Of a stretch of DNA of 12,901 nt, positions 1 through 12,901 are shown piece after piece. The DNA is from Deinococcales bacterium (GTDB lineage: Bacteria; Deinococcota; Deinococci; Deinococcales; JAAFIG01): positions 1 to 12,901 of the forward strand of contig JAYWGM010000096.1 of assembly GCA_043778225.1 (NCBI GenBank). The letters are read 5' to 3'. The notes under the pieces were generated by a model, which worked only from the letters and a program-made list of their open reading frames with translations, searched no databases and was not told the origin of the DNA. The translations under genes and the position numbers were made by a program. Position 1 is the stretch's first letter. Every line of letters starts with the position of its first letter.

Positions 1-72
1 ATGAGGTATGTTCAAGAATTACTTTTAAGACTTATGCGACAAGCTCGAGATATTTTAGGGAGGTGCGCATGA
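1..72 (+). CDS. Probable 3' end of an upstream gene of unknown function (partial)
   Basis: Frame 1 is open from base 1 (MRYVQELLLRLMRQARDILGRCA*). Its TGA (70-72) overlaps the cas3 ATG at 69 in an ATGA arrangement like other junctions in this operon. Only 23 codons are visible, so it could be chance. Confidence 0.4.
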   Translation: MRYVQELLLRLMRQARDILGRCA

Positions 73-2264
73 AACCAGAATACGCGGCGCACACACCAAC
101 GGAAGCCAAAGACCCAACAGCACCTTGGCACGAACTGCTCGAGCATTTAGAGGCTGTGGCAAAAGATGCTGCTCTTTTTGCCAACAAATTTGGGGCTGCC
201 GAGCTTGCACATTGGGCTGGAATGCTGCACGACACGGGCAAATTCAGCAGTGCTTTCCAAAATTACCTGTGGCAAGCCCATGTTGCCGACCGCGATGGCA
301 CAAGCCCACCCGAAAAAGGCAAAGTAGACCACTCGAGCACCGGCGCGGTGATTGCTCGAGTCTTAGTCAGCACCACACCTAATGCCGCTGGTCTCGAGTT
401 GCCTTGGGTGATTGCTGGGCATCATGCTGGGTTAGTATCGCGATTAGCCTTAGAAACAAGATTGCACGAAAAATCTAACGATACCGTTCTGCTTGATGGC
501 GCAGCCAAAGCCCTTGCATGGCAAAAATTAGATTTTTTAGAAACCCAACCTCTGCCACTGCCAGAATTTGCTACACCACTCGAGCGCGAATTCTTTGTGC
601 GGATGCTTTTAAGTTGCCTTGTGGATGCCGACCACTTAGACACCGAAGCCTTTGGTAGCCCCCATAAAACCGTGCTTCGCAACCAAACCCAAACCAGCCT
701 GGAGATATTGCTTGAACGCCTAAAAGCCTCACAAATCCAAATTATGCAGCACGCCAAACCGACAGCCGTCAACCAAGCTCGAGCCAAAGTGTACCAAGCT
801 GCCTTGGACGCAGCAGATAAGCCAACAGGATTTTTTAGATTGAGTGTACCGACAGGCGGCGGCAAAACCAGAAGTTCTTTGGCTTTTGCTTTACAGCACG
901 CCATCAAGCACGGACTCGAGCGAGTGATTTATATCGTGCCATTTTTAAGCATCACCACCCAAATCGCCGAAGAATTTTGTAAAATACTGGGCAGCGAGAA
1001 TGTACTCGAGCATCATAGCGCGGTTAAAACCGATTCGGAAGAAGGTTTAACCAGAGCCAAACTTGCCACCGAAAACTGGGATGCCCCAATCATCATTACC
1101 ACCGGCGTTCAATTTTTAGAGAGTCTATTTGCCAATAAAACCAGTAAGCTCCGCAAATTACACCGAATTTCTAAAGCTGTACTGATTTTTGATGAAGCCC
1201 AAACACTGCCAGCCCCGTTACTGACCCCAATTTTAGAACTATTCCATCAACTGGTGGGGCGGTACCACTCGAGCATCGTTTTATGTACCGCCACCCAACC
1301 CGCACTAGATGCAAAAAGTGGCTTCCCAGACCTCAACGCTTTTGAAATTGCGCCCAATGTGCCAGATCTTTACAGCACCTTAAAACGAGTGACCTACAGC
1401 TTCCCAACCGAATTATGGGATTACACAAAAGTTGCCAAAGAAATAAAAAATCATCCCCAAGCGCTGTGCATTGTCAATACCCGAGCCGCCGCTCGAGAAA
1501 TTTGGCAAGCCCTAAACGACGACAACGCCATTCATCTCAGCACCCATTTGTGCGGCGCACACCGCTTGGAGAAAATTCGTGAACTCAAACAACGACTGCT
1601 CGAGCGGCAAGACTGTCGAGTTGTCAGCACCCAACTGATAGAGGCTGGCGTGGATGTCGATTTTCCAGTGGTACTGCGTGCTTTAGCCCCTCTGGATAGC
1701 CTCGTTCAAGCGGCTGGACGCTGCAACCGCAACATGAAGCTCGAGCGTGGACAGGTGATTATTTTTAAGCCACAAATTCCGACCATGCCCAAAGGCAATT
1801 ATGCGGTTGCCACCCTCAAAACCCAGAATCTGTTGCAATCTGGGGTAGACCTCGATAACCCAGAAACCTTTCTCGAGTATTTTAGGCAATTGCACCTGAC
1901 CCAAATAGATACCGATGCCAAGAATATCCAAGATCTGCGTCAGCGCTTTGACTACCCAGAAGTCTACAAAGCCTTTGGGGTGATTGAAAAAGACACCACC
2001 CCAATCCTGATTCGGCACTATGCCCCCGAGGTCGTTGCCAAAATACTAGAAGCAGGCGTGAACCGTGTAACCATGCGCCGCTTGCAACCGTACTTGATTA
2101 ACGTCTATACCCACAAACTTGTGCAACTCGACCGCGCCGCCCTGATACGCCCCTGCAAAGAATTATCGGGCTATGAAAAATTTGAACTGCTCGAATGGGC
2201 AGGCAAATACCACCCTCAACTTGGCATTCTCGAGGAGGTGGATGTGACAGAATTTGTGTGTTGA
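69..2264 (+). CDS. cas3: Cas3 HD nuclease-helicase, type I-C
   Basis: N-terminal HD domain (EHLEAV, LHDTGK, HHAGL, LVDADHLDT) fused to an SF2 helicase (PTGGGKT, DEAQ, CTATQP, STQLIEAGVDVDF, QAAGRCNR). ATG at 69 is preferred over GTG at 63 because GGGAGG lies at 58-63. Confidence 0.97.
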   Translation: MKPEYAAHTPTEAKDPTAPWHELLEHLEAVAKDAALFANKFGAAELAHWAGMLHDTGKFSSAFQNYLWQAHVADRDGTSPPEKGKVDHSSTGAVIARVLVSTTPNAAGLELPWVIAGHHAGLVSRLALETRLHEKSNDTVLLDGAAKALAWQKLDFLETQPLPLPEFATPLEREFFVRMLLSCLVDADHLDTEAFGSPHKTVLRNQTQTSLEILLERLKASQIQIMQHAKPTAVNQARAKVYQAALDAADKPTGFFRLSVPTGGGKTRSSLAFALQHAIKHGLERVIYIVPFLSITTQIAEEFCKILGSENVLEHHSAVKTDSEEGLTRAKLATENWDAPIIITTGVQFLESLFANKTSKLRKLHRISKAVLIFDEAQTLPAPLLTPILELFHQLVGRYHSSIVLCTATQPALDAKSGFPDLNAFEIAPNVPDLYSTLKRVTYSFPTELWDYTKVAKEIKNHPQALCIVNTRAAAREIWQALNDDNAIHLSTHLCGAHRLEKIRELKQRLLERQDCRVVSTQLIEAGVDVDFPVVLRALAPLDSLVQAAGRCNRNMKLERGQVIIFKPQIPTMPKGNYAVATLKTQNLLQSGVDLDNPETFLEYFRQLHLTQIDTDAKNIQDLRQRFDYPEVYKAFGVIEKDTTPILIRHYAPEVVAKILEAGVNRVTMRRLQPYLINVYTHKLVQLDRAALIRPCKELSGYEKFELLEWAGKYHPQLGILEEVDVTEFVC

Positions 2265-2281
2265 AGATATGAGTGCATCAA

Positions 2282-2289
2282 AAGGAGGT
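2282..2289 (+). promoter_or_regulatory. Shine-Dalgarno site for cas5c
   Basis: AAGGAGGT, 7 nt upstream of the in-frame TTG at 2297. Confidence 0.7.
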
Positions 2290-2296
2290 TATTACC

Positions 2297-2983
2297 TTGG
2301 TTAGCCTAAAAATCTGGAGTGACTTTGCGTGTTTTACCCGACCGGAAAACAAAGTCGAGCGTGTCAGTTACGATGTCATGACCCCAAGTGCAGCGCGGGG
2401 TGTTTTGGAGAGTATATTTTGGAAACCCGAAATGCGTTTTTTAATCAGAGAAATCTGGGTTCTAAACCCAATCAAACGCTTTAGTCTGGTTCGTAACGAA
2501 GTCAAAAGCGTTGCCTTGAGCCGAGCTGCTAAATCATGGAGCGAACACGGTGGCGGGTACTTAGCCGATGAGGACCGCACCCAACGCCACGCACTGATTC
2601 TGCGCGACGTGGCTTATGTGGTCAAAGCCGAGATTGAACTGACCAAACGTGCGACCGACCCGTTACAAAAGTACACAGAAATTTTTAATCGGCGGGTCGA
2701 AAAAGGACAAGCCCACCGAATGCCGTACCTTGGCAACCGCGAATTCACCGCCAATTTTAGCCCTGTAGATGGCACAGAAACCCCGATTCTCGAGACCAAC
2801 GAACTGGGACGAATGCTGTTTGACCTTGAATTTCAAGTTCAGAAAAAAGGCGGGATTCAATTTAGGCAACACAGCCAAAACGGTAGTGTGGTCGTCGACG
2901 GAACAGCTACCCCAAAGTTTTTTCGTGCCAAACTCGAGCGTGGCATCCTAAAAATACCATCTGAACTTTATGGAGGTGCTTAG
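2297..2983 (+). CDS. cas5c: Cas5c (Cas5d), type I-C Cascade subunit and pre-crRNA processing endoribonuclease
   Basis: Signature N-terminus ACFTRPENKVERVSYDVMTPSAARG, plus IFWKP, RNEV, LRDVAY and PYLGNREF. TTG at 2297 is chosen over GTG at 2273 because of the strong RBS. Confidence 0.96.
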   Translation: MVSLKIWSDFACFTRPENKVERVSYDVMTPSAARGVLESIFWKPEMRFLIREIWVLNPIKRFSLVRNEVKSVALSRAAKSWSEHGGGYLADEDRTQRHALILRDVAYVVKAEIELTKRATDPLQKYTEIFNRRVEKGQAHRMPYLGNREFTANFSPVDGTETPILETNELGRMLFDLEFQVQKKGGIQFRQHSQNGSVVVDGTATPKFFRAKLERGILKIPSELYGGA

Positions 2984-4747
2984 ATGCTGCTCGAGCAACT
3001 GGTGCAGTATGCGGGCAAACTCGAGCGACAAGGCAAAACCTTGCCGTTTATGTACCAAGAAGCCCCGGTAAAATGGCTGATTTACCTGAATCAAGACGGA
3101 GTTTTTGAGCGTTTAGAAATGACCTCGAATGGTTTAGAAGGCAAGAAAAACACTGGCAAAGTGCTGCAAATCCCGCATTTATCGCGCCAAGGTGCTAAAG
3201 CCAAATTGCTCTGCGATGACGCGCCTTATGTGCTAAAGATGGCTCGAGAAAAAGACGACGAGAGCAAAGTGCCTTTTAAGCACGAACTTTTTAAGCAAGA
3301 ACTGCAAGAATGCTATGCCGCCACCGAACTACCCGAAATAAAAGCAATTCTGGCATTCCTCGAGACCCTGCCAATAGAATTGCCCGAAGGTTTTAATGCC
3401 AGCGATAGCCTGACATTTGTGGTCAACGGCATCATGCCAATCCATAAGACTGCCATTAAAGAATACTGGGCTGGTAAATTTTCGGTCGCCGAGACCGACA
3501 GTAAAGATAAGCCCACTTTTGCCGAATGCCTGATTTCTGGTGAATACGGCGCGGTGATGCGAATTGAGCCACTCAAAATAAAAGGTGGTGGTATACCCAA
3601 CGGTCAAACCAGTGGCATGAACATCGTTTCTACCGACAAAGACGCATTTGGCAGCTACGGCTTAAAAAGTCTCTCGAGCGCCCCGATTCGCTTACCGTTG
3701 GCGGTCAAATACGCCAACGCCTTAAATACCTTGCTGCGCGACCCAATCACCCATTTGCGGGTCGGACCAGCCGTTTATGCGTTCTGGACAAAAGAGCAAG
3801 ACACACCACCGGTGGTTGAAATCCTCAAAAATCCAAGTGCCTTATTTGCCAAACTCAAAGCCGGGCAAAGCATCCAAGAAGACCTGACCATAACCGCCAG
3901 CAGCGAACAGGTCAAAAAGTTAGTCGGCAGCATCTTTAGTGGGCAAACCCCGACAAAACTCGAGCCAGACCAATTCTATGCCGCTTGTTTCTCGGCCTCG
4001 GGCAGCCGTGTGGTCCTGCGAAGCTACCTAGCCAGTACAGTTCAGGAGGTTGGCGAACACTTGGCTCGTTATTTTTTAACCCAAGAATTGATTGATACCG
4101 AACCAATGGGCGTTTTTGAACTGAGCGCCAGCCTGTACCGCGATGCCAACAAAGAACTGACCACACCAATCATCAGCGCCTTACTCGAGAATGCACTCAA
4201 AGGCACACCTTTACCGCACAGCTACCTGATTCGCTTAGCCAACCGCAACCGCGCCGAACAGCGTATTACCAAACCTCGAGCGGTATTAACCCGCATGACC
4301 CTAATTTCAATTCGGAGGATTCGTATGGATGAACTGACCGCTTTACAACCCGACCACCCCAGTGTTGGGTATCAACTTGGGCGCTTAATGGCAGCCTTGG
4401 AGAGTTTGCAATACGCCGCTCTGGGCAAACTCAACAGCACCGTTGTGGACAGATTTTACGGCGCACTGAGCAGCACTCCGATTGTAGCCTACAGCCGCCT
4501 GATGGCAGGAGCGCGAAATCATGTCAGCAAGCTGGGCAAAGAAAGCGCTGGGGCGGCGGTGCGCGAAGAACAGCGCCTGCAACAAATCCATAGCCGAATC
4601 TCGAGTATTCCCACCCGTTTAGACCTCGAGGAACAAGCGATGTTCAGCCTTGGCTACTACCACGAAAAAGCCGATAGATTCGCCCAAATCCAAGCCGCCA
4701 AAGACCTCAAAGCCAACCCTCAAAACGCCACAGGAGGCAACCCATGA
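2984..4747 (+). CDS. cas8c: Cas8c (Csd1), type I-C large subunit
   Basis: 587 aa between cas5c and cas7c. Motifs CLISG, AFGSYG, YANALNTLL, GYQLGRLMAALESLQ, VVDRFYG and EEQAMFSLGYYHE. GGAGG RBS at 2972-2976. Confidence 0.95.
   Translation: MLLEQLVQYAGKLERQGKTLPFMYQEAPVKWLIYLNQDGVFERLEMTSNGLEGKKNTGKVLQIPHLSRQGAKAKLLCDDAPYVLKMAREKDDESKVPFKHELFKQELQECYAATELPEIKAILAFLETLPIELPEGFNASDSLTFVVNGIMPIHKTAIKEYWAGKFSVAETDSKDKPTFAECLISGEYGAVMRIEPLKIKGGGIPNGQTSGMNIVSTDKDAFGSYGLKSLSSAPIRLPLAVKYANALNTLLRDPITHLRVGPAVYAFWTKEQDTPPVVEILKNPSALFAKLKAGQSIQEDLTITASSEQVKKLVGSIFSGQTPTKLEPDQFYAACFSASGSRVVLRSYLASTVQEVGEHLARYFLTQELIDTEPMGVFELSASLYRDANKELTTPIISALLENALKGTPLPHSYLIRLANRNRAEQRITKPRAVLTRMTLISIRRIRMDELTALQPDHPSVGYQLGRLMAALESLQYAALGKLNSTVVDRFYGALSSTPIVAYSRLMAGARNHVSKLGKESAGAAVREEQRLQQIHSRISSIPTRLDLEEQAMFSLGYYHEKADRFAQIQAAKDLKANPQNATGGNP
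4314..4318 (+). promoter_or_regulatory. Internal Shine-Dalgarno site inside cas8c
   Basis: GGAGG 6 nt upstream of the in-frame ATG at 4325 (cGGAGGattcgtATG). Confidence 0.7.
4325..4747 (+). CDS. cas11c: Cas11c small subunit, translated from an internal in-frame start in cas8c (140 aa)
   Basis: In-frame ATG (offset 1341 nt from the cas8c start) with a GGAGG RBS, placed just before the C-terminal helical domain (MDELTALQPDHPSVGYQLGRL...). Internal Cas11 translation is established for type I-C. Confidence 0.78.
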   Translation: MDELTALQPDHPSVGYQLGRLMAALESLQYAALGKLNSTVVDRFYGALSSTPIVAYSRLMAGARNHVSKLGKESAGAAVREEQRLQQIHSRISSIPTRLDLEEQAMFSLGYYHEKADRFAQIQAAKDLKANPQNATGGNP

Positions 4748-5631
4748 AACACCTCGACTCGACTAAACGCCACGATTTTATGATTCTTTTTGATGTCACC
4801 GATGGCAACCCCAACGGCGACCCAGACGCAGGCAATTTACCGCGTGTAGACCCAGAAACCGGACAAGGCTTTGTGACCGATGTTGCCCTAAAACGCAAAA
4901 TTCGCAATTATGTAGACGCACTGCGCGGCAAAGAAGACCGCTTTAAGATTTATATTCAACAAGGCGCAGTCTTAAATGAACGCAATTTGCGCGCCTATAC
5001 TGCCCTAAAAAAAGATGCCAAAAAAGCCAACAGCAAGGATGTTTCCGAGACTCGAGCTTGGATGTGCGAAAACTTTTTTGATGTCCGCACCTTTGGCGCA
5101 GTCATGAGTACTGAAATCAACTGCGGACAAGTCCGCGGACCTGTGCAACTGACCTTTGCCCGAAGCGTAGACCGCATTTTGCCAATGGATGCCGCCATCA
5201 CTCGAGTTGCCCTGACCAAAGCCGATGAGAAAGCCAGCCGCGATGGCGAGACAGGCGAAAGCACCGCCTCGAGCGGCACAATCGGGCGTAAAGCCTTTAT
5301 TCCATACGGTTTATACGTCGGTTATGGTTTTTTTGTACCGAGTTACGCCGCCGATACAAAATTTGATAACACCGACTTAGAACTGGTCTGGCAAGCCCTG
5401 ATGAATATGTGGGACTTAGACCGCAGCGCCAGCCGTGGGCGCACCGCCTGCCGTGGCTTGTACGTTTTTAGCCACGATAGCGCCCTTGGCAACGCCCCCA
5501 GCCACAAACTTTTTAAGCGCATCCAAATTCCAAGCGTTGGGGTAACTCGAGCCTTTGAAGAGTACACCGTCCAAATTGATGATACTGACTTGCCTACTGG
5601 CGTGACCCTGACACGTTTACTCGAGGGTTAA
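4744..5631 (+). CDS. cas7c: Cas7c (Csd2), type I-C backbone subunit
   Basis: GNPNGDPDAGNLPR, VTDVALKRKIRNY, FFDVRTFGAV, GQVRGPVQ and DRSASRG motifs. AGGAGG RBS and ATGA overlap with cas8c. Confidence 0.97.
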   Translation: MKHLDSTKRHDFMILFDVTDGNPNGDPDAGNLPRVDPETGQGFVTDVALKRKIRNYVDALRGKEDRFKIYIQQGAVLNERNLRAYTALKKDAKKANSKDVSETRAWMCENFFDVRTFGAVMSTEINCGQVRGPVQLTFARSVDRILPMDAAITRVALTKADEKASRDGETGESTASSGTIGRKAFIPYGLYVGYGFFVPSYAADTKFDNTDLELVWQALMNMWDLDRSASRGRTACRGLYVFSHDSALGNAPSHKLFKRIQIPSVGVTRAFEEYTVQIDDTDLPTGVTLTRLLEG

Positions 5632-5632
5632 A

Positions 5633-6841
5633 ATGCGAAAAATTCTTGAGACCGTTCCAACCCTCGAGACTCCCAAGCTAACCACTTGGGAACTTACCCT
5701 AAAAACAATCACCCCAATGTTTGGCGGCAGTGCCAAAACCCGCGAAATAAACGCACAAAACCCGATTCGTCCAGCCAGCATACGCGGGCATTTGCGCTTC
5801 TGGTGGCGAGCCACAGCAGGAGCAGCCTTCTCGAGCAGTCAGGAATTATTTGAGGCAGAAAAAGCCATTTGGGGCAGTGGAGAAAAATATGGTTTGGTCA
5901 GCCTGCGGGTGCAGACACTCGATAACGGTGTGGAGATCGAACCATCTGAAATTGTCCCAGATAGAGGCACAGCCCAAAGTGGACCAATGGAAAGATTTTT
6001 TTTACATCCTTTCAACGAAAATCGTACCGAGAGACTTGCCGAAGCCGTTGGACGAAAAGAAATCAAGTTTCAATGCAGTTTGACCTTTCAAAAACCAACA
6101 ACACCAGCCCAGCAACTCGAAGTGAAAACAGCCATTCGTGCGTGGCTCGCATTCGGAGGGATTGGCGCTCGCACTCGGCGCGGTTGCGGAGCGCTCGAAG
6201 TAACTCAAGAGCGCTCCGAATGGCTACCCGAAAATCTCGAGCAACTAAAGACTTGGTTTTCGGGTGTGCCAGACCGAGCAATTGAGCGGACTTCTTTATT
6301 TGGCGGACACTTGCAATTTGGTGAAATCTGTACAGGTAGGCGCGACCAACCACCAGCTTTTGCGGCATGGCGCGAGCTTGGGCAATTCTGGACACGGTTT
6401 CGCAAAGGGCATTTCACCGAAAAACATCCGACTTTCAGTGCCATGAGCGGCGCTTCTTGGCATGACCACCGAGAATTGCAAAGTTTAGCTCCAACTGCCC
6501 AAGAAATCGAGTTGTCCAAACCATTTTATGGTTTACCACTGATTTATCAAAAATTTCGTGATGCTTTTAGTGGCGAAATAGAAGCAGTTCACCCACATGG
6601 ACGGCGTATGGCATCACCAATTATTTTGAAACCCATCGGTTTTGCCAATGGCAATGTACGGCCTTTGGTGCTGGTTTTACGCGCCCCCAGCCCAAAACGT
6701 ATCAAGATAAAGCGCCAAGAGGTTGACTTAAAACCGCCTCATTTTGATCGTGTTCTCGATGCCTTAAAAGCTCAAGACCCGCTCGATGCTATCTACAAAG
6801 CCGCCATCAAACACGGATTTGACAATGAGGTGCGCCTATGA
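5633..6841 (+). CDS. cmr1: Cmr1, type III-B RAMP subunit
   Basis: TITPMFGG, IRPASIRGHLRFWWRA, EKAIWG, G-loop FGGIGARTRRGCG, FYGLP and RRMASPIILKP. Confidence 0.95.
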   Translation: MRKILETVPTLETPKLTTWELTLKTITPMFGGSAKTREINAQNPIRPASIRGHLRFWWRATAGAAFSSSQELFEAEKAIWGSGEKYGLVSLRVQTLDNGVEIEPSEIVPDRGTAQSGPMERFFLHPFNENRTERLAEAVGRKEIKFQCSLTFQKPTTPAQQLEVKTAIRAWLAFGGIGARTRRGCGALEVTQERSEWLPENLEQLKTWFSGVPDRAIERTSLFGGHLQFGEICTGRRDQPPAFAAWRELGQFWTRFRKGHFTEKHPTFSAMSGASWHDHRELQSLAPTAQEIELSKPFYGLPLIYQKFRDAFSGEIEAVHPHGRRMASPIILKPIGFANGNVRPLVLVLRAPSPKRIKIKRQEVDLKPPHFDRVLDALKAQDPLDAIYKAAIKHGFDNEVRL

Positions 6842-8301
6842 GCTACCTGCTCGCTATTGCCATCGGACCAGTTCAAGATTTTATCGCTGCTGCACGGCGT
6901 ACCGCCGACCTTTATGCAGGTTCAGAGCTTTTAATGGAAGTCACTAAAAAAATTGCTTTGGATCTACAATCCAAAAATGCAAAGCTGATTTTCCCAAGCG
7001 AACCTGAGCAGGGCGGCGCAAATAAAATCCTTGCCGAAGTCTCGAGCGACCCGACTGAACTTGTCAAAGCCCTTAAAGCCTTGAGCCGAGATTTTTTACA
7101 AAAGGAATGGAGCAAAGCCTACTCGAGTTTTTCGGATAAAAACGCCGTACATGAGGCTCGAGCCACAGCCCAAATAGAGAATTTTCTCGAGATTTACGCT
7201 GCGTGGGTGGAGTTAGACGATTACAAAAATTCGCGTTTGCAAGTCGAGCGCTTACTGGCTGGACGCAAAGCCTTACGTGATTTTACGCAAACGCTGGGCA
7301 ATAATGCAGGCATCCCTAAAAGCCCACTTGATGCTTCTCGAGCCAGTGTTTTGAGCAATCCAGCATTGCTTGCGGATGCCACTGCCAGCTATAAGCCTCT
7401 GCGCCTAAAAGCCACCGAACATTTGGACGCAATTTCTTTGCTGAAACGTATTTATGGCGTAAGCACAACCAAAACTGTGATTGATACCCGAACAATGGCG
7501 AGACGCGCAAAAAATCCTGCGGTCGTACCCAGTGAGCGCCAAGAAGACGATGATACGACCACCGAAGCCCAACCGTATTATGCAATTTTGCACGCTGACG
7601 GCGACAAAATGGGTGACTTGATTGGGAAATTAGGAACACCAAAGGCACATCAGGAATTCTCGAGTACCCTAGCGGGGTTTGCTTCGGGTGTGGAAGCCAT
7701 CGTTAAACGGCATTACGGTTTTAAGATTTATAGCGGCGGCGATGATGTGCTGGCGTTTTTGCCGGTCAATACTGCCATTGCTTGCGCTCGAGAACTGGCA
7801 ACGGATTTTGCGAACAAACTGCCCGAGGCTTCTTTATCGGTGGGCATTGCCATAGTCCATTACCGCGAGCCGCTTTCGATGGGTCTTGATTATGCTCGAG
7901 ATGCCGAAAAAGCCGCTAAAAATAAATCTGATACAGACCCAGACAATCACGGCAATCGTTTAGCAGTGGCGCTCCATACACGCGGCGGCGCTCCTATGAC
8001 CGTGGTTGAACCTTGGAATAAGCCAGCCTTAGAAAAATTACTTGGGCATTATCAAACACAAACGGTCTCGAGGGGATTGGCTTACGAATTAAAACAATTG
8101 GCTCGAGAATGGGATAAAACTGCTTTACCAATGATTGCTCTACAAGCCGAAGCCAAACGTATCGCAGCCCGAAAAGAAGGTGAGACGCTCGAGATTCCAC
8201 CACTCGAGTCAGTCAAAGACCTTGAAGCTTTTGCCAAAAAACTTGTGTTGGTGAGATTTTTAAGTGGATTAGGAGGCGAAGATGCCAAGCAAGATATTTG
8301 A
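6838..8301 (+). CDS. cas10: Cas10/Cmr2, type III-B large subunit, compact HD-less form with intact GGDD cyclase motif
   Basis: IGPVQDFIAAARRTADLYAGSELL at the very N-terminus, YYAILHADGDKMG, IYSGGDDVLAF (GGDD at 7735-7746), SLSVGIAIVHYREPL and AEKAAK. Confidence 0.96.
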   Translation: MSYLLAIAIGPVQDFIAAARRTADLYAGSELLMEVTKKIALDLQSKNAKLIFPSEPEQGGANKILAEVSSDPTELVKALKALSRDFLQKEWSKAYSSFSDKNAVHEARATAQIENFLEIYAAWVELDDYKNSRLQVERLLAGRKALRDFTQTLGNNAGIPKSPLDASRASVLSNPALLADATASYKPLRLKATEHLDAISLLKRIYGVSTTKTVIDTRTMARRAKNPAVVPSERQEDDDTTTEAQPYYAILHADGDKMGDLIGKLGTPKAHQEFSSTLAGFASGVEAIVKRHYGFKIYSGGDDVLAFLPVNTAIACARELATDFANKLPEASLSVGIAIVHYREPLSMGLDYARDAEKAAKNKSDTDPDNHGNRLAVALHTRGGAPMTVVEPWNKPALEKLLGHYQTQTVSRGLAYELKQLAREWDKTALPMIALQAEAKRIAARKEGETLEIPPLESVKDLEAFAKKLVLVRFLSGLGGEDAKQDI

Positions 8302-9403
8302 TATTCACGCTCCAAGCCCACTGCTTTTTCGGGATGGAAAACCCTTTGGTGCAGCTGGCGGAACAGAAACCAGCGCTCGGTCTTTGGCTGTGCCATTGCC
8401 CAGCACTTTGGCGGGTTTTATTCGGACTCAGATTGGAGTAAAAAGCAGTTGGAATTGGAGTGATGGCGATACCCTAAAAAATGCACACACCATCTGTGTA
8501 TCTGGATTACTGACCAGAGACCAAAAAATTGTTTTGCCCGCCCCTCGAGATGCGGTGATTTATAAAGACAAAGCCCAAATCCTACGAATGATGTGCTTAA
8601 AACCGCTCGAGTTACCAAACAATGCTGGCACAGACGCGCCTGAAAGTATAAATCCACTGGCAATTACGCAAGATGTCAAAGCCGAAACAGGGTACGCATT
8701 TTGGACAAAAGAAGACATGACGACGTGGTTATTAAACGACACACCAAATGCCGAAAAACTCGAGAAAATAGCGGGTTTGCCACTCGAGACTCGGGTTCAT
8801 GTGGCAATCAATAAAGATTCTAAAGTTGGCGAAGAGGGGCAATTATTCAGTGTTGGCTATCGCAGTTTTGAATCTAAATCAGAAGCTGGACACCATAGAT
8901 GGAGCATCCGCACTCGGGTTAAACTGCCCGATAAAACAGCTATTTCTAAACTTGGGCATTTGGGCGGAGAACGCCGTGCAGTGACACTCGAGGAACAAGA
9001 TATTGGCAACTGGTGGGATTGCCCGACTGAACTCAAAACGGCGATTCGCAACAGTAAGTACCTAAAACTTGTGCTTGCTACTCCCGCTATTTTTACCCAC
9101 GGTTGGAAACCCGCTTGGCTCGAGGCTACAGACAGCGCCAATATGCCCAAAGGCTTACATGGCCTGAAACTTAAACTGATTTCGGCAGCCATCGGCAGAC
9201 GCGAGCCGGTATCTGGTTGGAATATCCGCGAGAACAGCGCCAAAGCTGTGCGTTATATGGTTCCGGCAGGTAGTGTTTACTTTTTTGAATTGCTGGAAGG
9301 CAACCAAGAAAAAATTCTCGAGAACTGGCTCAAACCAGTTTCTGACAACGAACAAGACCGCAAAGACGGTTTTGGCTTAGCCCTTTGGGGAGTGTGGAAA
9401 TAA
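8282..9403 (+). CDS. cmr3: Cmr3, type III-B Cas5-family subunit
   Basis: PLLFRDGKPF, PLPSTLAGFIRT, LGGERR, LVLATPAIF, VSGWN, VPAGSVYFF and DGFGL. 20-nt overlap with cas10, with AGGAGG upstream. Confidence 0.95.
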   Translation: MPSKIFDIHAPSPLLFRDGKPFGAAGGTETSARSLAVPLPSTLAGFIRTQIGVKSSWNWSDGDTLKNAHTICVSGLLTRDQKIVLPAPRDAVIYKDKAQILRMMCLKPLELPNNAGTDAPESINPLAITQDVKAETGYAFWTKEDMTTWLLNDTPNAEKLEKIAGLPLETRVHVAINKDSKVGEEGQLFSVGYRSFESKSEAGHHRWSIRTRVKLPDKTAISKLGHLGGERRAVTLEEQDIGNWWDCPTELKTAIRNSKYLKLVLATPAIFTHGWKPAWLEATDSANMPKGLHGLKLKLISAAIGRREPVSGWNIRENSAKAVRYMVPAGSVYFFELLEGNQEKILENWLKPVSDNEQDRKDGFGLALWGVWK

Positions 9404-10248
9404 TGAACGTAAAAACTATTTTGTGGCAAGCAATTACACCGATTCATACCGGAGTCGGACAAACCTCGGCTGGAGTGATTGACTTACCAATTGCTCGAGA
9501 AACCGCCACCAATTACCCGATTATTCCAGCCAGCAGTATTAAAGGCGTTATTCGCGACGGGCGTGAAGGACTCGAGGCATATGGATTTGTGAACAAAGAA
9601 ATCGATGAACTTGACGAAAAAGGCAAAAAGAAAAAAATTAGTAAAGCCGCTGACCTCAGTTTTACCGACGCTCGAGTCTTGTGCTTGCCTGTGCGTTCAT
9701 ATAAAGGCACTTACGCACTTTTGACTTGCCCGTTGGTGCTGCAACGATTCGTTCGGGATTTAAGACTATTTGAGCAACAACCAAACTTTTTAAGCATTCC
9801 AAACCCAAAAGAAACCGAAGCATTGGTTTGTGGAGAGACCCTCAGCTTTGAGCAAAAAATCATTCTCGAGGACATAGACCTAGACTCGAGCCAATCTGCG
9901 GAAGCTGAAAGCATTGGCTTACATTTTGCCCAGCAATTATTTACTGACCAAACCGAGCAAAAGATTTTTCGTGAAAGGTTCGCAATAGTCCACAACGATA
10001 TTTTTGCCTTTTTTAGTGAAACCGCCATGGAAGTCAGCGCCCATATTGCACTTGAACCCGAGACAAAAACCGTCAATAAGAAAAAGGGCGCTCTTTGGTA
10101 CGAAGAAGCCATTCCAGCCGAAGCCATCTTCTCGAGCTTTGCGACTTCTACCACGGGTAATTTTAGTGAACTCGAGCAGCAAAACCAAGTGCAAATAGGT
10201 GGAAAAGCCAGTGTCGGACGTGGCTTACTGCGAATGGTGGTGCGCTAA
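9403..10248 (+). CDS. cmr4: Cmr4, type III-B backbone endoribonuclease
   Basis: TPIHTGVG, GVIDLPIARE (catalytic Asp position retained), IPASSIKG, DARVLCLPVRS, LWYEEAIP and QIGGKASVGRG. ATG at 9403 overlaps the cmr3 stop (TAATG). Confidence 0.96.
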   Translation: MNVKTILWQAITPIHTGVGQTSAGVIDLPIARETATNYPIIPASSIKGVIRDGREGLEAYGFVNKEIDELDEKGKKKKISKAADLSFTDARVLCLPVRSYKGTYALLTCPLVLQRFVRDLRLFEQQPNFLSIPNPKETEALVCGETLSFEQKIILEDIDLDSSQSAEAESIGLHFAQQLFTDQTEQKIFRERFAIVHNDIFAFFSETAMEVSAHIALEPETKTVNKKKGALWYEEAIPAEAIFSSFATSTTGNFSELEQQNQVQIGGKASVGRGLLRMVVR

Positions 10249-10634
10249 TGCAAACCAGAGCGCAAAAAGATTTGCAAATGGCTTATGAACTGGTCTCGAG
10301 GGTACAAGAACAATACCCGGACGCTAAAAACGAAACAAAAAGTATTCACTCGCAACTCTGCAAGCAATTCCCAATTATGGTTTTACAAAGTGGTCTGTGT
10401 CAAACACTGGCTTTCCATGCTGACAAAGCCAAAAAAGATGATGCTCGAGCCAAAGCGCATCAAATTATTTTGCAGCACATCGCTCAAATAATGAACGTCG
10501 AAACAGCCTTAACAAGCGTACAAACCTGCGGTGTACTCAAATACATATATTTCACACGCCGAATTCTCGAGGCTTGGGTGTTCTTTAAGCGCTTTGCCGT
10601 CAGTGCGCTCAAGCTTGAAAAAGAGGTGACGTGA
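10248..10634 (+). CDS. cmr5: Cmr5, type III-B small subunit
   Basis: 128 aa helical protein between cmr4 and cmr6, with MQTRAQ, FPIMVLQSGLCQTLAF and WVFFKRFA motifs. Confidence 0.92.
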   Translation: MQTRAQKDLQMAYELVSRVQEQYPDAKNETKSIHSQLCKQFPIMVLQSGLCQTLAFHADKAKKDDARAKAHQIILQHIAQIMNVETALTSVQTCGVLKYIYFTRRILEAWVFFKRFAVSALKLEKEVT

Positions 10635-11608
10635 TGCTTGCACGACGTAAGGATTTACAACAATACGGCTACGGCGACCATGCAGGCTTAGCGCTACAAA
10701 AATTATTAAAACAGCACGACGAAAAAAGCGAATCCGCCAAAGAACTCCTGAATGCCATTGGTCAATTAACCTCGAGTGATGCGTACAAAGCCGCTTTTGA
10801 ACGCTGGAAACTCAACTTGCCTCGGTCTCGGCTCTTGTTGCCTGCCACAACCAACAGCGCCCTAGCGATTGGACTTGGCAATGCCAGCCCAATCGAAGTT
10901 GGCTTAACGATTCATCGGATTTACGGCACACCATACTTGCCCGGCAGTGCGATCAAAGGCTTACTGACTCGAGCCGCCGATGCCCATGGTTTAAGCCCTA
11001 AAGACATAGAAATTTTGTTTGGTACAACCGAAAGCGCCGCGCACATTGTCTACTGGGATGCGATGCTCGAGCCAAGCAGTACAAACCCATACCAGCAAGA
11101 CGTGATAACAGTACATCACCAAAAGTATTACGGTTCGAGCGGCCAAGATGGCTACCCAACAGATTTTGACGACCCAATTCCTGTGGCGTTTTTAAGTGTC
11201 AGACCAAACACCAAATTCTGTGTTGCCCTCTCGAGCAACAGCCAAGGGGCTGAGCCGTGGTTATGGCTGGCAGCCGAATTATTACAATATGCCCTCGAGA
11301 AGATGGGCTTAGGCGGCAAGACCAATTCGGGATATGGGTATTTTGATATGCGCTTGCCCGAAAAGCTAAAAAGTAACACCGAACTTGCCGTTGAGCTTTT
11401 TGACGCAAAAAAAGTCTTGATTTTGCAGATAGATTCTGCCCAAGCCCTGACCAAAGCCGACCCTATTATTGCCGAACTCGAGCGTATTGATCCAAAAATT
11501 CGCCGTTCAACAGTCGAGACTTTGCAAAAGCAACTACAAAGTATAAAGCAATGGAATCTCGAGAAATCTCGGTGTCAGAAAATAGCCGCCATGCTGGAGG
11601 AATTATGA
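10634..11608 (+). CDS. cmr6: Cmr6, type III-B RAMP subunit
   Basis: LAIGLGNASPIEVGLTIHRIYGTPYLPGSAIKG, DVITVHH, PTDFDDPIPVAFL and G-loop GLGGKTNSGYGYF. Start is ATG 10634 (TGATG overlap) or GTG 10631. Confidence 0.95.
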   Translation: MLARRKDLQQYGYGDHAGLALQKLLKQHDEKSESAKELLNAIGQLTSSDAYKAAFERWKLNLPRSRLLLPATTNSALAIGLGNASPIEVGLTIHRIYGTPYLPGSAIKGLLTRAADAHGLSPKDIEILFGTTESAAHIVYWDAMLEPSSTNPYQQDVITVHHQKYYGSSGQDGYPTDFDDPIPVAFLSVRPNTKFCVALSSNSQGAEPWLWLAAELLQYALEKMGLGGKTNSGYGYFDMRLPEKLKSNTELAVELFDAKKVLILQIDSAQALTKADPIIAELERIDPKIRRSTVETLQKQLQSIKQWNLEKSRCQKIAAMLEEL

Positions 11609-12636
11609 GACTGATTATCAACACCGTCGGTACAAGCCTGCTCGGCAACGCCAAACGCCATAACCTCGAGACCGACACAGGAATTCTTGCGTACCTAAAT
11701 CGTGAACCTCGAGCCGCTAGTGCCGAAACCAATGCACTTGACCGTTTGCTTGCACCAAACGACCGTGCCGTGCTGCTTTATAGTCAAACCGTTGAAGGGC
11801 AACGCTGTGCTCAGTTAATTCAAGCTCATGTTCAAAAAACGCATCGCTGCGAAATCGAAGAAGTAAAGGGTTTGAGTTATGCCGAAAAAGGCTTTGTGCA
11901 ACACGGACTTAAAAACTTTGTGCAGATGCTGGCAAAGCATATCCGCGATGCAAAACGCGCCCATCTAGAGCCAATTATCAACGCCACCGGCGGATTCAAA
12001 GCCGAAATTGCTTACGCGACCGCCGTTGGCTTGGTGTTTAAGACTCCGGTTTGTTATATCCACGAAAAGTTTGGCGATATTGTGACCCTACCAGTTACGC
12101 CTTTTGGCTGGGACTCGAGTATTTTTGCACTGCATCAAGATTTTTTTGATTGGATAGATTCCGAGCCGCGCTCGAGCCAAGACGTACAAACTAGGACGGC
12201 AGGCTTGCCCGAAGAAATCAAGATGCTACTCGAGGCTGCCCAAGATGGAACAACCACGCTCTCACCGCTTGGCGAAGCCTACCTGAGTGCTTTTAGGCTT
12301 GAAAAAGAGACAAGCACTATAGAGATTTTGGTCTCGAGAAAAGCACGCCGTGATTGGGATGGTTTTGACCCGAGTACCCAAATAAAATATGCCAATGTTC
12401 TTGAAGCTTTGCGCTTAAAGAATCGCTCTGGTCGGTCTGAAAAGAAAAGCGGTGGCGGAGACGCGTATGGGTATCCGACAGGACATACCGACGAACGTAT
12501 CTTCTATGCCTTTGAAAACAAGGCACTCTACATTTTTGAATTTACCAAACACGGGCGTGACTACGACCAGTTTTGTAGCAATGGCTTACGCTGGCTCGAG
12601 TATCCACGCCAAGAATTTACAAGGTTTGAGCCATGA
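11605..12636 (+). CDS. cami1: CARF-domain (APE2256-type) effector with C-terminal RelE-like ribonuclease domain; Cami1-like
   Basis: CARF motifs INTVGTSLL, ASAETNAL, INATGGFKAE and CYIHEKF. A linker ending in TLSPLGEAY is followed by about 100 aa with a RelE/ParE-like pattern (ILVSRKARRDW...DERIFYAFENKALYIFEFTKHGRDY). Start ATG 11605 has GGAGG at 11596-11600 and an ATGA overlap with cmr6. The CARF call is secure; the RelE call is by eye. Confidence 0.78.
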   Translation: MRLIINTVGTSLLGNAKRHNLETDTGILAYLNREPRAASAETNALDRLLAPNDRAVLLYSQTVEGQRCAQLIQAHVQKTHRCEIEEVKGLSYAEKGFVQHGLKNFVQMLAKHIRDAKRAHLEPIINATGGFKAEIAYATAVGLVFKTPVCYIHEKFGDIVTLPVTPFGWDSSIFALHQDFFDWIDSEPRSSQDVQTRTAGLPEEIKMLLEAAQDGTTTLSPLGEAYLSAFRLEKETSTIEILVSRKARRDWDGFDPSTQIKYANVLEALRLKNRSGRSEKKSGGGDAYGYPTGHTDERIFYAFENKALYIFEFTKHGRDYDQFCSNGLRWLEYPRQEFTRFEP

Positions 12637-12901
12637 ACGAACCCTCTCAGATTCCGCTCTCGAGCCTGATGCACTACGCTTACTGCCCGCGCCGTTGTGC
12701 TTTGATTCACCTCGAGAACATCTGGGAGGACAACGAATACACCGCCAAAGGTACACGCAACCACACGAAAGCCGATGAACCCACGGTCGAACTGCTCGAG
12801 GGCGTCCGCATCGAACGGGCATTGCCACTCTTTAGCGATGCGCTCGAGTTAAGCGGTCGTGCCGATGTGGTCGAGTTTCTGCCCGACGGCACACCGTTTC
12901 C
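12633..12901 (+). CDS. cas4: Cas4, type I-C adaptation nuclease (5' part; truncated by window end)
   Basis: Absent from the ORF track; translated manually from ATG 12633: MNEPSQIPLSSLMHYAYCPRRCALIHLENIWEDNEYTAKG...ERALPLFSDALELSGRADVVEF. Has the first Fe-S Cys (YCPR) and the RecB motif G-x-A-D-V-V-E. ATGA overlap with the upstream gene. Confidence 0.95.
   Translation, partial: MNEPSQIPLSSLMHYAYCPRRCALIHLENIWEDNEYTAKGTRNHTKADEPTVELLEGVRIERALPLFSDALELSGRADVVEFLPDGTPF

Follow-up and report, generated by a model that had tools for sequence, protein, structure and literature searches.

Type III CRISPR-Cas systems without adaptation or processing genes of their own are, to our knowledge, served by type I neighbours, and the cases we know of involve Cas6-family nucleases and separate loci. 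One of these is the cooperation of types I-F and III-B in Marinomonas mediterranea, which Silas et al. are said to have described in eLife in 2017: the III-B system, reportedly lacking both a processing enzyme of its own and a matching array, uses type I CRISPR RNAs (crRNAs) and acts independently of the protospacer adjacent motif (PAM) as a back-up against phages that escape type I. We propose a similar back-up for the locus analysed here, a complete type III-B (Cmr) cassette nested inside a type I-C operon, which occupies the whole of the 12,901-bp contig C96 (hereafter the window) of an uncultured Deinococcales metagenome-assembled genome (MAG; G000, 4.03 Mb in 107 contigs, 89% complete). 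The Marinomonas systems reportedly lie in separate loci and share Cas6f, which leaves an 8-nt handle, whereas here the Cmr genes lie within the type I operon, Cas5c with its 11-nt handle is the sole crRNA nuclease encoded at the locus, and sharing is a proposal. Here the borrower is part of the lender's operon, where the sole nuclease available, Cas5c, is also retained in Cascade.

Several other systems resemble the window in part. The III-Bv system of Synechocystis, reportedly shown by Behler et al. in 2018 to be Cas6-independent and matured by RNase E, would be a precedent for non-Cas6 maturation of III-B crRNA, whereas its nuclease is said to be a host housekeeping RNase rather than Cas5c and its locus is said not to be nested in a type I operon. 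Putative composite III-B/I-F loci are carried by prophages of Vibrio cholerae and V. metoecus and, like the nested layout, combine Cmr genes with an array and other components of type I at a single site (PMC6360697); the V. metoecus Cas10 lacks an HD domain according to a preprint abstract, as does that of the window. According to the same paper, the Vibrio loci retain only cas6f and the I-F array, with no Cascade, Cas3 or adaptation genes, whereas a full I-C system surrounds the cassette here. Thermus thermophilus HB27 belongs to the same phylum, has a nearly identical I-C repeat (GTTGCACCGGCCCGAAAGGGCCGGTGAGGATTGAAAC) and encodes a Cas5c with 50% identity to that of the window, the stretch IFWKPE being common to both; this Cas5c is experimentally active (PMC12102369). 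In HB27, by contrast, the I-C and III-B systems occupy separate loci, Cmr belongs to another clade and has the order cas10-cmr3-cmr1, and guides were shown to be unshared, type III relying on Cas6-2 (PMC12102369). Cami1 of Allochromatium vinosum, a fusion of CARF7 with a RelE-like domain, is encoded beside a III-B operon that starts with cmr1, as here, whereas that locus is stand-alone, outside any type I operon, and its effector has low sequence similarity to that of the window. Moraxella bovoculi possesses both I-C and III-B systems in a text that gives no locus layout (PMC12827968), and a further paper lists Thermus cas genes with nothing else of relevance (PMC5529391).

Gene calls in the window were made with NCBIfam, Pfam and PADLOC profiles, counting matches above the cut-off of each model. 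Twelve open reading frames (ORFs), all on the + strand, fill the window, and every one was assigned, with no Cas6 among them:

69..2264, + strand: cas3 of type I-C, HD nuclease fused to helicase (TIGR01587 2e-38; TIGR01596 5e-25; PADLOC Cas3c 2.8e-201)
2273..2983, + strand: cas5c, the I-C pre-crRNA endoribonuclease and Cascade subunit (TIGR01876 6e-44, 150.6 bits, cut-off 85)
2984..4747, + strand: cas8c (Csd1), the I-C signature large subunit (TIGR01863 2.4e-89, 300.5 bits, cut-off 218.65; PF09709 4e-104)
4744..5631, + strand: cas7c (Csd2), the Cascade backbone (TIGR02589 8e-97, 324 bits, cut-off 182)
5633..6841, + strand: cmr1 (TIGR01894 3e-21)
6838..8301, + strand: cas10/cmr2, 487 amino acids (aa) (TIGR02577 2e-50; PF22335 9.5e-33; PF12469)
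8282..9403, + strand: cmr3 (PF09700 1.5e-79)
9385..10248, + strand: cmr4, by family the target-RNA slicer subunit (TIGR02580 1.2e-55)
10248..10634, + strand: cmr5, small subunit (PF09701 3e-22)
10631..11608, + strand: cmr6 (TIGR01898 4.5e-37)
11605..12636, + strand (longest ORF from 11551): CARF7-RelE effector, putatively Cami1-like (PADLOC PDLC01937 1.3e-140)
12633..12901, + strand: cas4 of I-C type, N-terminal 89 codons, cut by the contig end (Cas4c 3.7e-31)

The order cas3-cas5c-cas8c-cas7c-cmr1-cas10-cmr3-cmr4-cmr5-cmr6-CARF/RelE-cas4, put forward in the original prediction from the bare sequence, is thereby borne out by hidden Markov models (HMMs). Both TIGR01596 and TIGR01587 exceed their cut-offs within the single 733-aa ORF of Cas3, as defines type I-C, and this ORF starts at ATG 69 or GTG 63, preceded by AGGGAGG. 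Cas5c matches Cas5d/Cas5c chains in the PDB at 1e-43. Cmr1, Cas10/Cmr2, Cmr3, Cmr4, Cmr5 and Cmr6 constitute the full type III-B set, all six above NCBIfam cut-offs, so that two effector types stand in a single uninterrupted cas operon and the locus is by gene content a 'hybrid' in the sense of CCTyper, a generic class (PMC11229360). A side observation concerns Cas5c of the Meiothermus type (L017 / L125), which has a 7-residue insertion (DFDPQ..) at the position where the window, HB27 and D. vulgaris have the W of (F/H)WKP.

The cassette is joined to its host operon without a visible seam. At the left junction the cas7c TAA (5629-5631) is separated by the single base 5632 from the cmr1 ATG (5633-5635), with GAGGG 6-10 nt 5' of that ATG; at the right junction the effector TGA (12634-12636) overlaps the cas4 ATG (12633-12635) in the tetranucleotide ATGA 12633-12636. 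Direct reading of the sequence upholds the original prediction on both points, the 1-bp spacing and the stop-start overlap, as well as on the tight packing into one unit, since no intergenic space is left: all neighbouring genes of the window overlap or are spaced by 8 bp or less. There is no step in G+C content at either junction, and promoter-like sites (12 against 12.4 expected from shuffles) and terminator-like sites (17 against 20.6) are not in excess and absent from the junctions, in a scan that is a weak tool and is not taken as evidence of absence. From this arrangement, the 12 genes probably form one translationally coupled operon. The effector had originally been placed from position 11551; ATG 11605 is most likely the start instead, because GGAGG stands in front of it, because it overlaps the stop of cmr6 (11606-11608) in an ATGA, and because it coincides with residue 19, at which the profile alignments begin. 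Because the contig ends inside cas4, neither cas1, cas2 nor an I-C array is visible in the window.

The layout recurs throughout the phylum. In a survey of 364 Deinococcota species genomes, Cas7c (TIGR02589) exceeded its cut-off in 84 and Cmr3 (PF09700) was present in 64 (a tally that includes G327). The original prediction recommended searching genomes for cas7c-cmr1 adjacency, and the arrangement proved to be common in Deinococcota: in 28 of the 364 genomes (G000 counted) cmr3 follows cas7c at a distance of 1.8-3.1 kb on the same strand, distributed over the window's own family (3), f2 (2), f4 (22) and f5 (1). All of the other 27 loci show cas3-cas5c-cas8c-cas7c followed by Cmr genes and, where the contig permits, by zero to two CARF effectors (Csx1, CARF-PD-DExK, CARF-RelE) and then cas4-cas1c-cas2. 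Of the 28 genome loci, 24 keep the distance from cas7c stop to cmr1 start within -8 to +4 nt, as do 16 metagenome loci. Relatives that share the gene order encode Cas1c (1.6e-142) and Cas2c and carry 37-nt repeats; an array was found in 17 of the 28 loci (the window being one of the 28), mostly with 37-nt repeats ending GAGGATTGAAAC, for example GTTGCACTCGGGCGAAAGCTCGAGTGAGGATTGAAAC, and the arrays adjoining nested loci are of I-C type. One further genome, G185, has a nested locus split over two contigs, additional to the 28, and in G195 the locus occurs twice. Of 80 metagenome loci retrieved with the Cmr3 profile, 17 have cmr1 or cas10 immediately after cas7c; every one of the 16 informative loci with a Cmr3 identity of 47% or more is nested, whereas relatives at 44% identity or less with enough flank are stand-alone. 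Cultured organisms carry the layout as well, namely Meiothermus luteus KCTC 52599 and Allomeiothermus silvanus DSM 9946, in which it is annotated in the same order by the Prokaryotic Genome Annotation Pipeline on plasmid pMESIL01 (RefSeq NC_014213.1, 181-203 kb), the only nested type among 16 plasmid records matching Cmr3. Because it recurs across the phylum, we consider the layout to be real and inherited, and not an assembly error.

The original prediction had left open whether the arrangement was already described. It is common and already in public annotation (RefSeq, pMESIL01), apparently unstudied; our literature searches yielded no paper describing a Cmr cassette nested in an I-C operon and none in which Cas5c serves a type III system, though classification reviews and their supplements may list composite loci of this sort. 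All the parts belong to known families, and type I/III cooperation and 'hybrid' loci are likewise already known.

The order is not invariant: two genome loci of the 28 depart from it, as does one metagenome locus. G099 (L009) and metagenome locus L141 have a reduced locus consisting of cas7c, a 315-nt gap, cas10, cmr3, Csx1, CARF-RelE and an array, with no cmr1, cmr4, cmr5, cmr6, cas4 or cas1 detected there. What lies between cmr6 and cas4 differs among nested loci: G053 has a 16-repeat array between CARF-RelE and cas4 (L029 14850-15953), A. silvanus has an IS3-family transposase between csx1 and CARF-RelE (L125, NC_014213.1 186927-188050), and the nested loci of G203 and G176 contain no effector gene at all. 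A metagenome contig of a more distant lineage (L143, 355-19985) carries a triple hybrid, cas5c-cas8c-cas7c-cas3-cas4-[cmr1..cmr6 + CARF-RelE]-[III-F cas10f-cas5f-cas11f-cas7f]-cas1c-cas2c, in which two Cas6-less type III modules lie between cas4 and cas1 of an I-C variant.

Phylogenies of Cmr3 and Cas7c group the nested loci differently. All 31 I-C-linked Cmr3 sequences (27 from nested loci, 2 from split ones, that of G213 and the stand-alone copy of G073) fall in one clade of the Cmr3 tree (66 rows) with a support of 99 in the Shimodaira-Hasegawa-like approximate likelihood ratio test (SH-aLRT). The window Cmr3 belongs to this clade; the other 35 III-B Cmr3 of the phylum lie outside it, in loci with the gene order cas10-cmr3-cmr1-cmr4-cmr5-cmr6. 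In the Cas7c tree (78 rows), by contrast, nested loci occur in two deep clades mixed with canonical ones, and at least six state changes are needed. The 50 further Cas7c loci of the phylum comprise 39 of canonical order (cas7c-cas4-cas1-cas2), in agreement with the I-C order that the original prediction took as its reference, together with one nested locus, one with a Cmr cassette after cas2 (G213), four at a contig edge and five with other downstream genes. The window itself illustrates the mismatch, its Cmr3 being sister to that of G142 (79% identity), yet the Cas7c proteins of the two are only 46% identical; a canonical locus, G145:C40, shares 92% identity with the window in Cas7c and 80% in Cas4.

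At this one site, divergent I-C backbones acquire, lose or exchange the cassette. Because its Cmr3 forms one clade whereas its Cas7c partners form two deep clades among canonical loci, we regard it as a plug-in at the seam between interference and adaptation genes, that is, as one old lineage that has been moved, lost or re-paired with different I-C backbones; the route of exchange would most simply be recombination through the flanking cas genes. On the anatomy, the conservation and this plug-in behaviour we have hardly any doubt. Two members of the I-C-linked Cmr clade lie outside the usual site, one downstream of a complete I-C locus, after cas2 (G213:C43, L073/L111), and one stand-alone with Csx1 and CARF-RelE, 1.7 Mb from the I-C locus of its genome (G073:C2, L091). 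Separately, Cmr1 (window 5633-6841 and L009-L035) separates into two deep allele classes of 9 and 21 rows, both with SH-aLRT 100, each of which spans several families and which disagree with the Cmr3 tree; the window Cmr1 has 47-57% identity to most f4 copies and only 36-39% to those of its own family, unlike the window Cas10, which is 68-70% identical within that family.

A compositional mark is shared by host and cassette. The hexamer CTCGAG occurs 82 times in the window against 1.9 expected, about once per 157 bp, in the I-C and Cmr parts alike; its like density in both parts and the lack of a G+C break argue for long residence of the cassette in this lineage. The longest CTCGAG-free stretch, at 6242-7040 and covering the 3' half of cmr1, was considered as a sign of import and rejected, about 0.5 such gaps being expected by chance (an estimate). 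The same hexamer is found inside the stem of I-C repeats of relatives (L010, L014 and others).

The signalling arm of the cassette can be read from Cas10 and the effector. An N-terminal HD nuclease is present on Cas10 in many, not all, III-B members. In the window Cas10 no HD match was found with NCBIfam or Pfam, and Cmr2_N (PF12469) starts at residue 4 of 487; the cyclase GGDD motif is kept (ysGGDDvlaf in the alignment to 9arw_A). With HD absent and GGDD kept, the expected output is RNA cleavage by Cmr4 and cyclic-oligoadenylate signalling without the HD DNase, which would make this a signalling-only III-B variant, with membership of III-B not barred. Effector residues 19-360 align to positions 2-344 of the 344-position CARF7--CARF_RelE profile of PADLOC (1.3e-140); there are further matches to PF09651 (2e-30) and to PDB 8phb (1.2e-15), the latter over the CARF part only, the RelE part being unaligned to 8phb by phmmer. 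Judged by these matches, the effector is probably Cami1-like. Proteins of the Cami1 type are RelE nucleases activated by cyclic tetra-adenylate (cA4) that cut mRNA in the ribosomal A site, and Csx1 and Cami1 are a frequent pairing (both from PMC11229360); such a pair is present in many of the nested relatives.

We posit that Cmr, being without adaptation genes, array or Cas6 of its own, would draw on the I-C machinery. Cas4-Cas1-Cas2 would acquire spacers into the I-C array and Cas5c would cut the pre-crRNA, leaving a 5' handle of 11 nt; the final 8 nt of this handle, ATTGAAAC in relatives, are similar to a type III tag. Cascade and Cas3 would then destroy PAM-flanked DNA, while Cmr may bind transcripts of the same invaders independently of a PAM, Cmr4 cutting the RNA and Cas10 producing cyclic oligoadenylate, probably cA4. 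This messenger would activate CARF-RelE, so that ribosome-bound mRNA is cleaved and translation arrested, and the second layer would catch phages that escape the type I layer. On balance we lean towards this account as a whole, comprising an inherited hybrid locus, an operon, shared I-C guides and a two-layer defence.

Its most exposed step is the supply of guides. As a rule, type III complexes depend on crRNA that Cas6 has made and that bears an 8-nt 5' tag, a difficulty on which the original prediction did not touch. No cas6 lies inside the nested loci, the Cas6 matches of 21 nested genomes all lying elsewhere, and 8 of the 29 nested genomes (the 28 and G185) have no Cas6 match. Neither Cas6 (TIGR01877, PF10040, PF01881) nor a second Cas10 was found in G184, G053 and G099 (98-99% complete) or in G000; G141 and G142 show no Cas6 by the same three models, nor does G205, in which a III-A Csm1 is present, and G179 has no match to TIGR01877, the only model applied there. 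The four genomes in which the nested Cmr is the only type III system and no Cas6 is detectable suggest that Cas5c-made I-C crRNAs may feed Cmr, and the I-C repeat of relatives ends ATTGAAAC, which resembles the type III tag. That Cas5c-made I-C guides load Cmr we consider possible, at somewhat less than an even chance. More tentative again is the wider proposal that I-C-linked Cmr is a Cas6-independent system loaded with 11-nt-handle Cas5c crRNAs, in which one adaptation module, one array and one nuclease arm both Cascade and Cmr, and whose cassette spreads by recombination through cas7c and cas4.

A number of observations weigh against guide sharing and the account built on it. Cas6 is carried by 21 of the 29 nested genomes; in four of five complete genomes it sits in a III-A locus, and six of eight Cas6 regions examined contain arrays ending ATTGCAAC within ~10 kb of Cas6, a possible source in trans of guides for the nested Cmr. 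The genomes that lack Cas6 are either drafts or MAGs, Cas6 is diverse, and the cassette of G099 is reduced and may be decaying. The contigs of G000 contain no assembled I-C cas1, cas2 or array, the only array seen being of type I-E. Cas5c leaves an 11-nt handle rather than one of 8 nt and remains bound to Cascade (PMC8524198). In HB27, whose Cmr falls in another clade than nested Cmr, I-C-type arrays gave no type III interference, Cas5c served I-C only, type III needed Cas6 encoded elsewhere, and neither Cas6 enzyme cuts the I-C repeat (PMC12102369). Finally, the trees are quick searches with support by SH-aLRT only.

In the strongest competing explanation, nesting reflects co-regulation or hitch-hiking only; separate arrays of type III style would supply Cmr in trans with crRNAs processed by Cas6, much as III-A and III-B share guides in Thermus, and neither I-C guides nor Cas5c would be used. 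Besides the frequency of Cas6, it has on its side that Cas6 lies ~4 kb from the Csm1 gene in G183, G193, G190 and G170, that the six array-bearing Cas6 neighbourhoods have repeats such as GTCGCAAAACAAAAGCCCCGTAAGGGGATTGCAAC, and that repeat specificity in HB27 is strict, its Cas6 enzymes leaving the I-C repeat uncut (PMC12102369). It sits poorly with G184 and G053, which keep intact nested cassettes with no Cas6 or other Cas10 found, with the Cas6-less nested cassettes of G000 and of the MAGs G142 and G141 (intact bar a two-piece cmr3), with the occurrence of the I-C-linked Cmr clade away from I-C in only 1 of 31 cases, and with L143, which repeats Cas6-less nesting in another lineage. We rate supply in trans as rather unlikely. 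The idea of an 'orphan' Cas6 serving the nested Cmr in the complete genomes was rejected, as Cas6 there belongs to III-A loci with their own arrays, by which service in trans is neither proved nor excluded.

The outcome matters beyond this locus. If Cmr takes Cas5c guides, type III crRNA recognition would have to admit a longer 5' handle, there would be a reason why III-B modules without Cas6 persist, and the locus would represent a compact natural design by which one array gives immunity at both the DNA and the RNA level; if it does not, the locus would still clearly exemplify the exchange of modules at the seam between interference and adaptation. Cultured carriers such as A. silvanus DSM 9946 and M. 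luteus KCTC 52599 make the question open to direct test.

A second alternative is that recombination at a module boundary put the cassette there as a neutral by-product, with Cmr a selfish or decaying passenger that has no functional tie to I-C here. Repeated gain or loss on the Cas7c tree would fit such a passenger, as would the loci reduced by cmr1 and cmr4-6 (G099, L141), the cmr3 of G141 in two pieces, the IS3 element inside the A. silvanus cassette and the missing effector genes of G203 and G176. Against this stand the seven cassette genes, which are full-length in the window and in most relatives, the junction spacing of -8 to +4 nt kept in 24 of 28 loci across four families, and a CTCGAG density equal to that of the host, and we consider a mere passenger improbable.

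Misassembly, which the original prediction named among the risks to the nesting, is scarcely credible here: a chimera of two metagenome loci joined into one contig would suit the MAG source, the short contig and ends that overlap higher-depth contigs (109x and 115x against 32x), whereas bridging contigs with 0 differences, one of them from a second sample, and the identical order in isolates and complete genomes speak against it. In run X1, Logan contigs match 70-10321 and 10685-12833 with 0 differences, and are not independent evidence because X1 may be the source sample; in the second sample, X2, a 671-nt contig covers 5276-5946, across the cas7c/cmr1 junction, again with 0 differences. The two ends of the window (1-99 and 12804-12901) overlap other X1 contigs of ~3-fold depth, which suggests that a different locus or strain of greater abundance has the 5' end of cas3 and cas4 in common with the window, and because both ends do so this is probably why assembly stopped inside cas4. 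Elsewhere in G000, a five-copy repeat on C103 was considered as a CRISPR array and rejected as a coding low-complexity repeat. The only cas1 of the genome is an I-E cas1 on C80, where positions 17-8700 hold a type I-E system with a 44-repeat array (29-nt I-E-like repeat) and, after it, cas2, cas1 and other genes.

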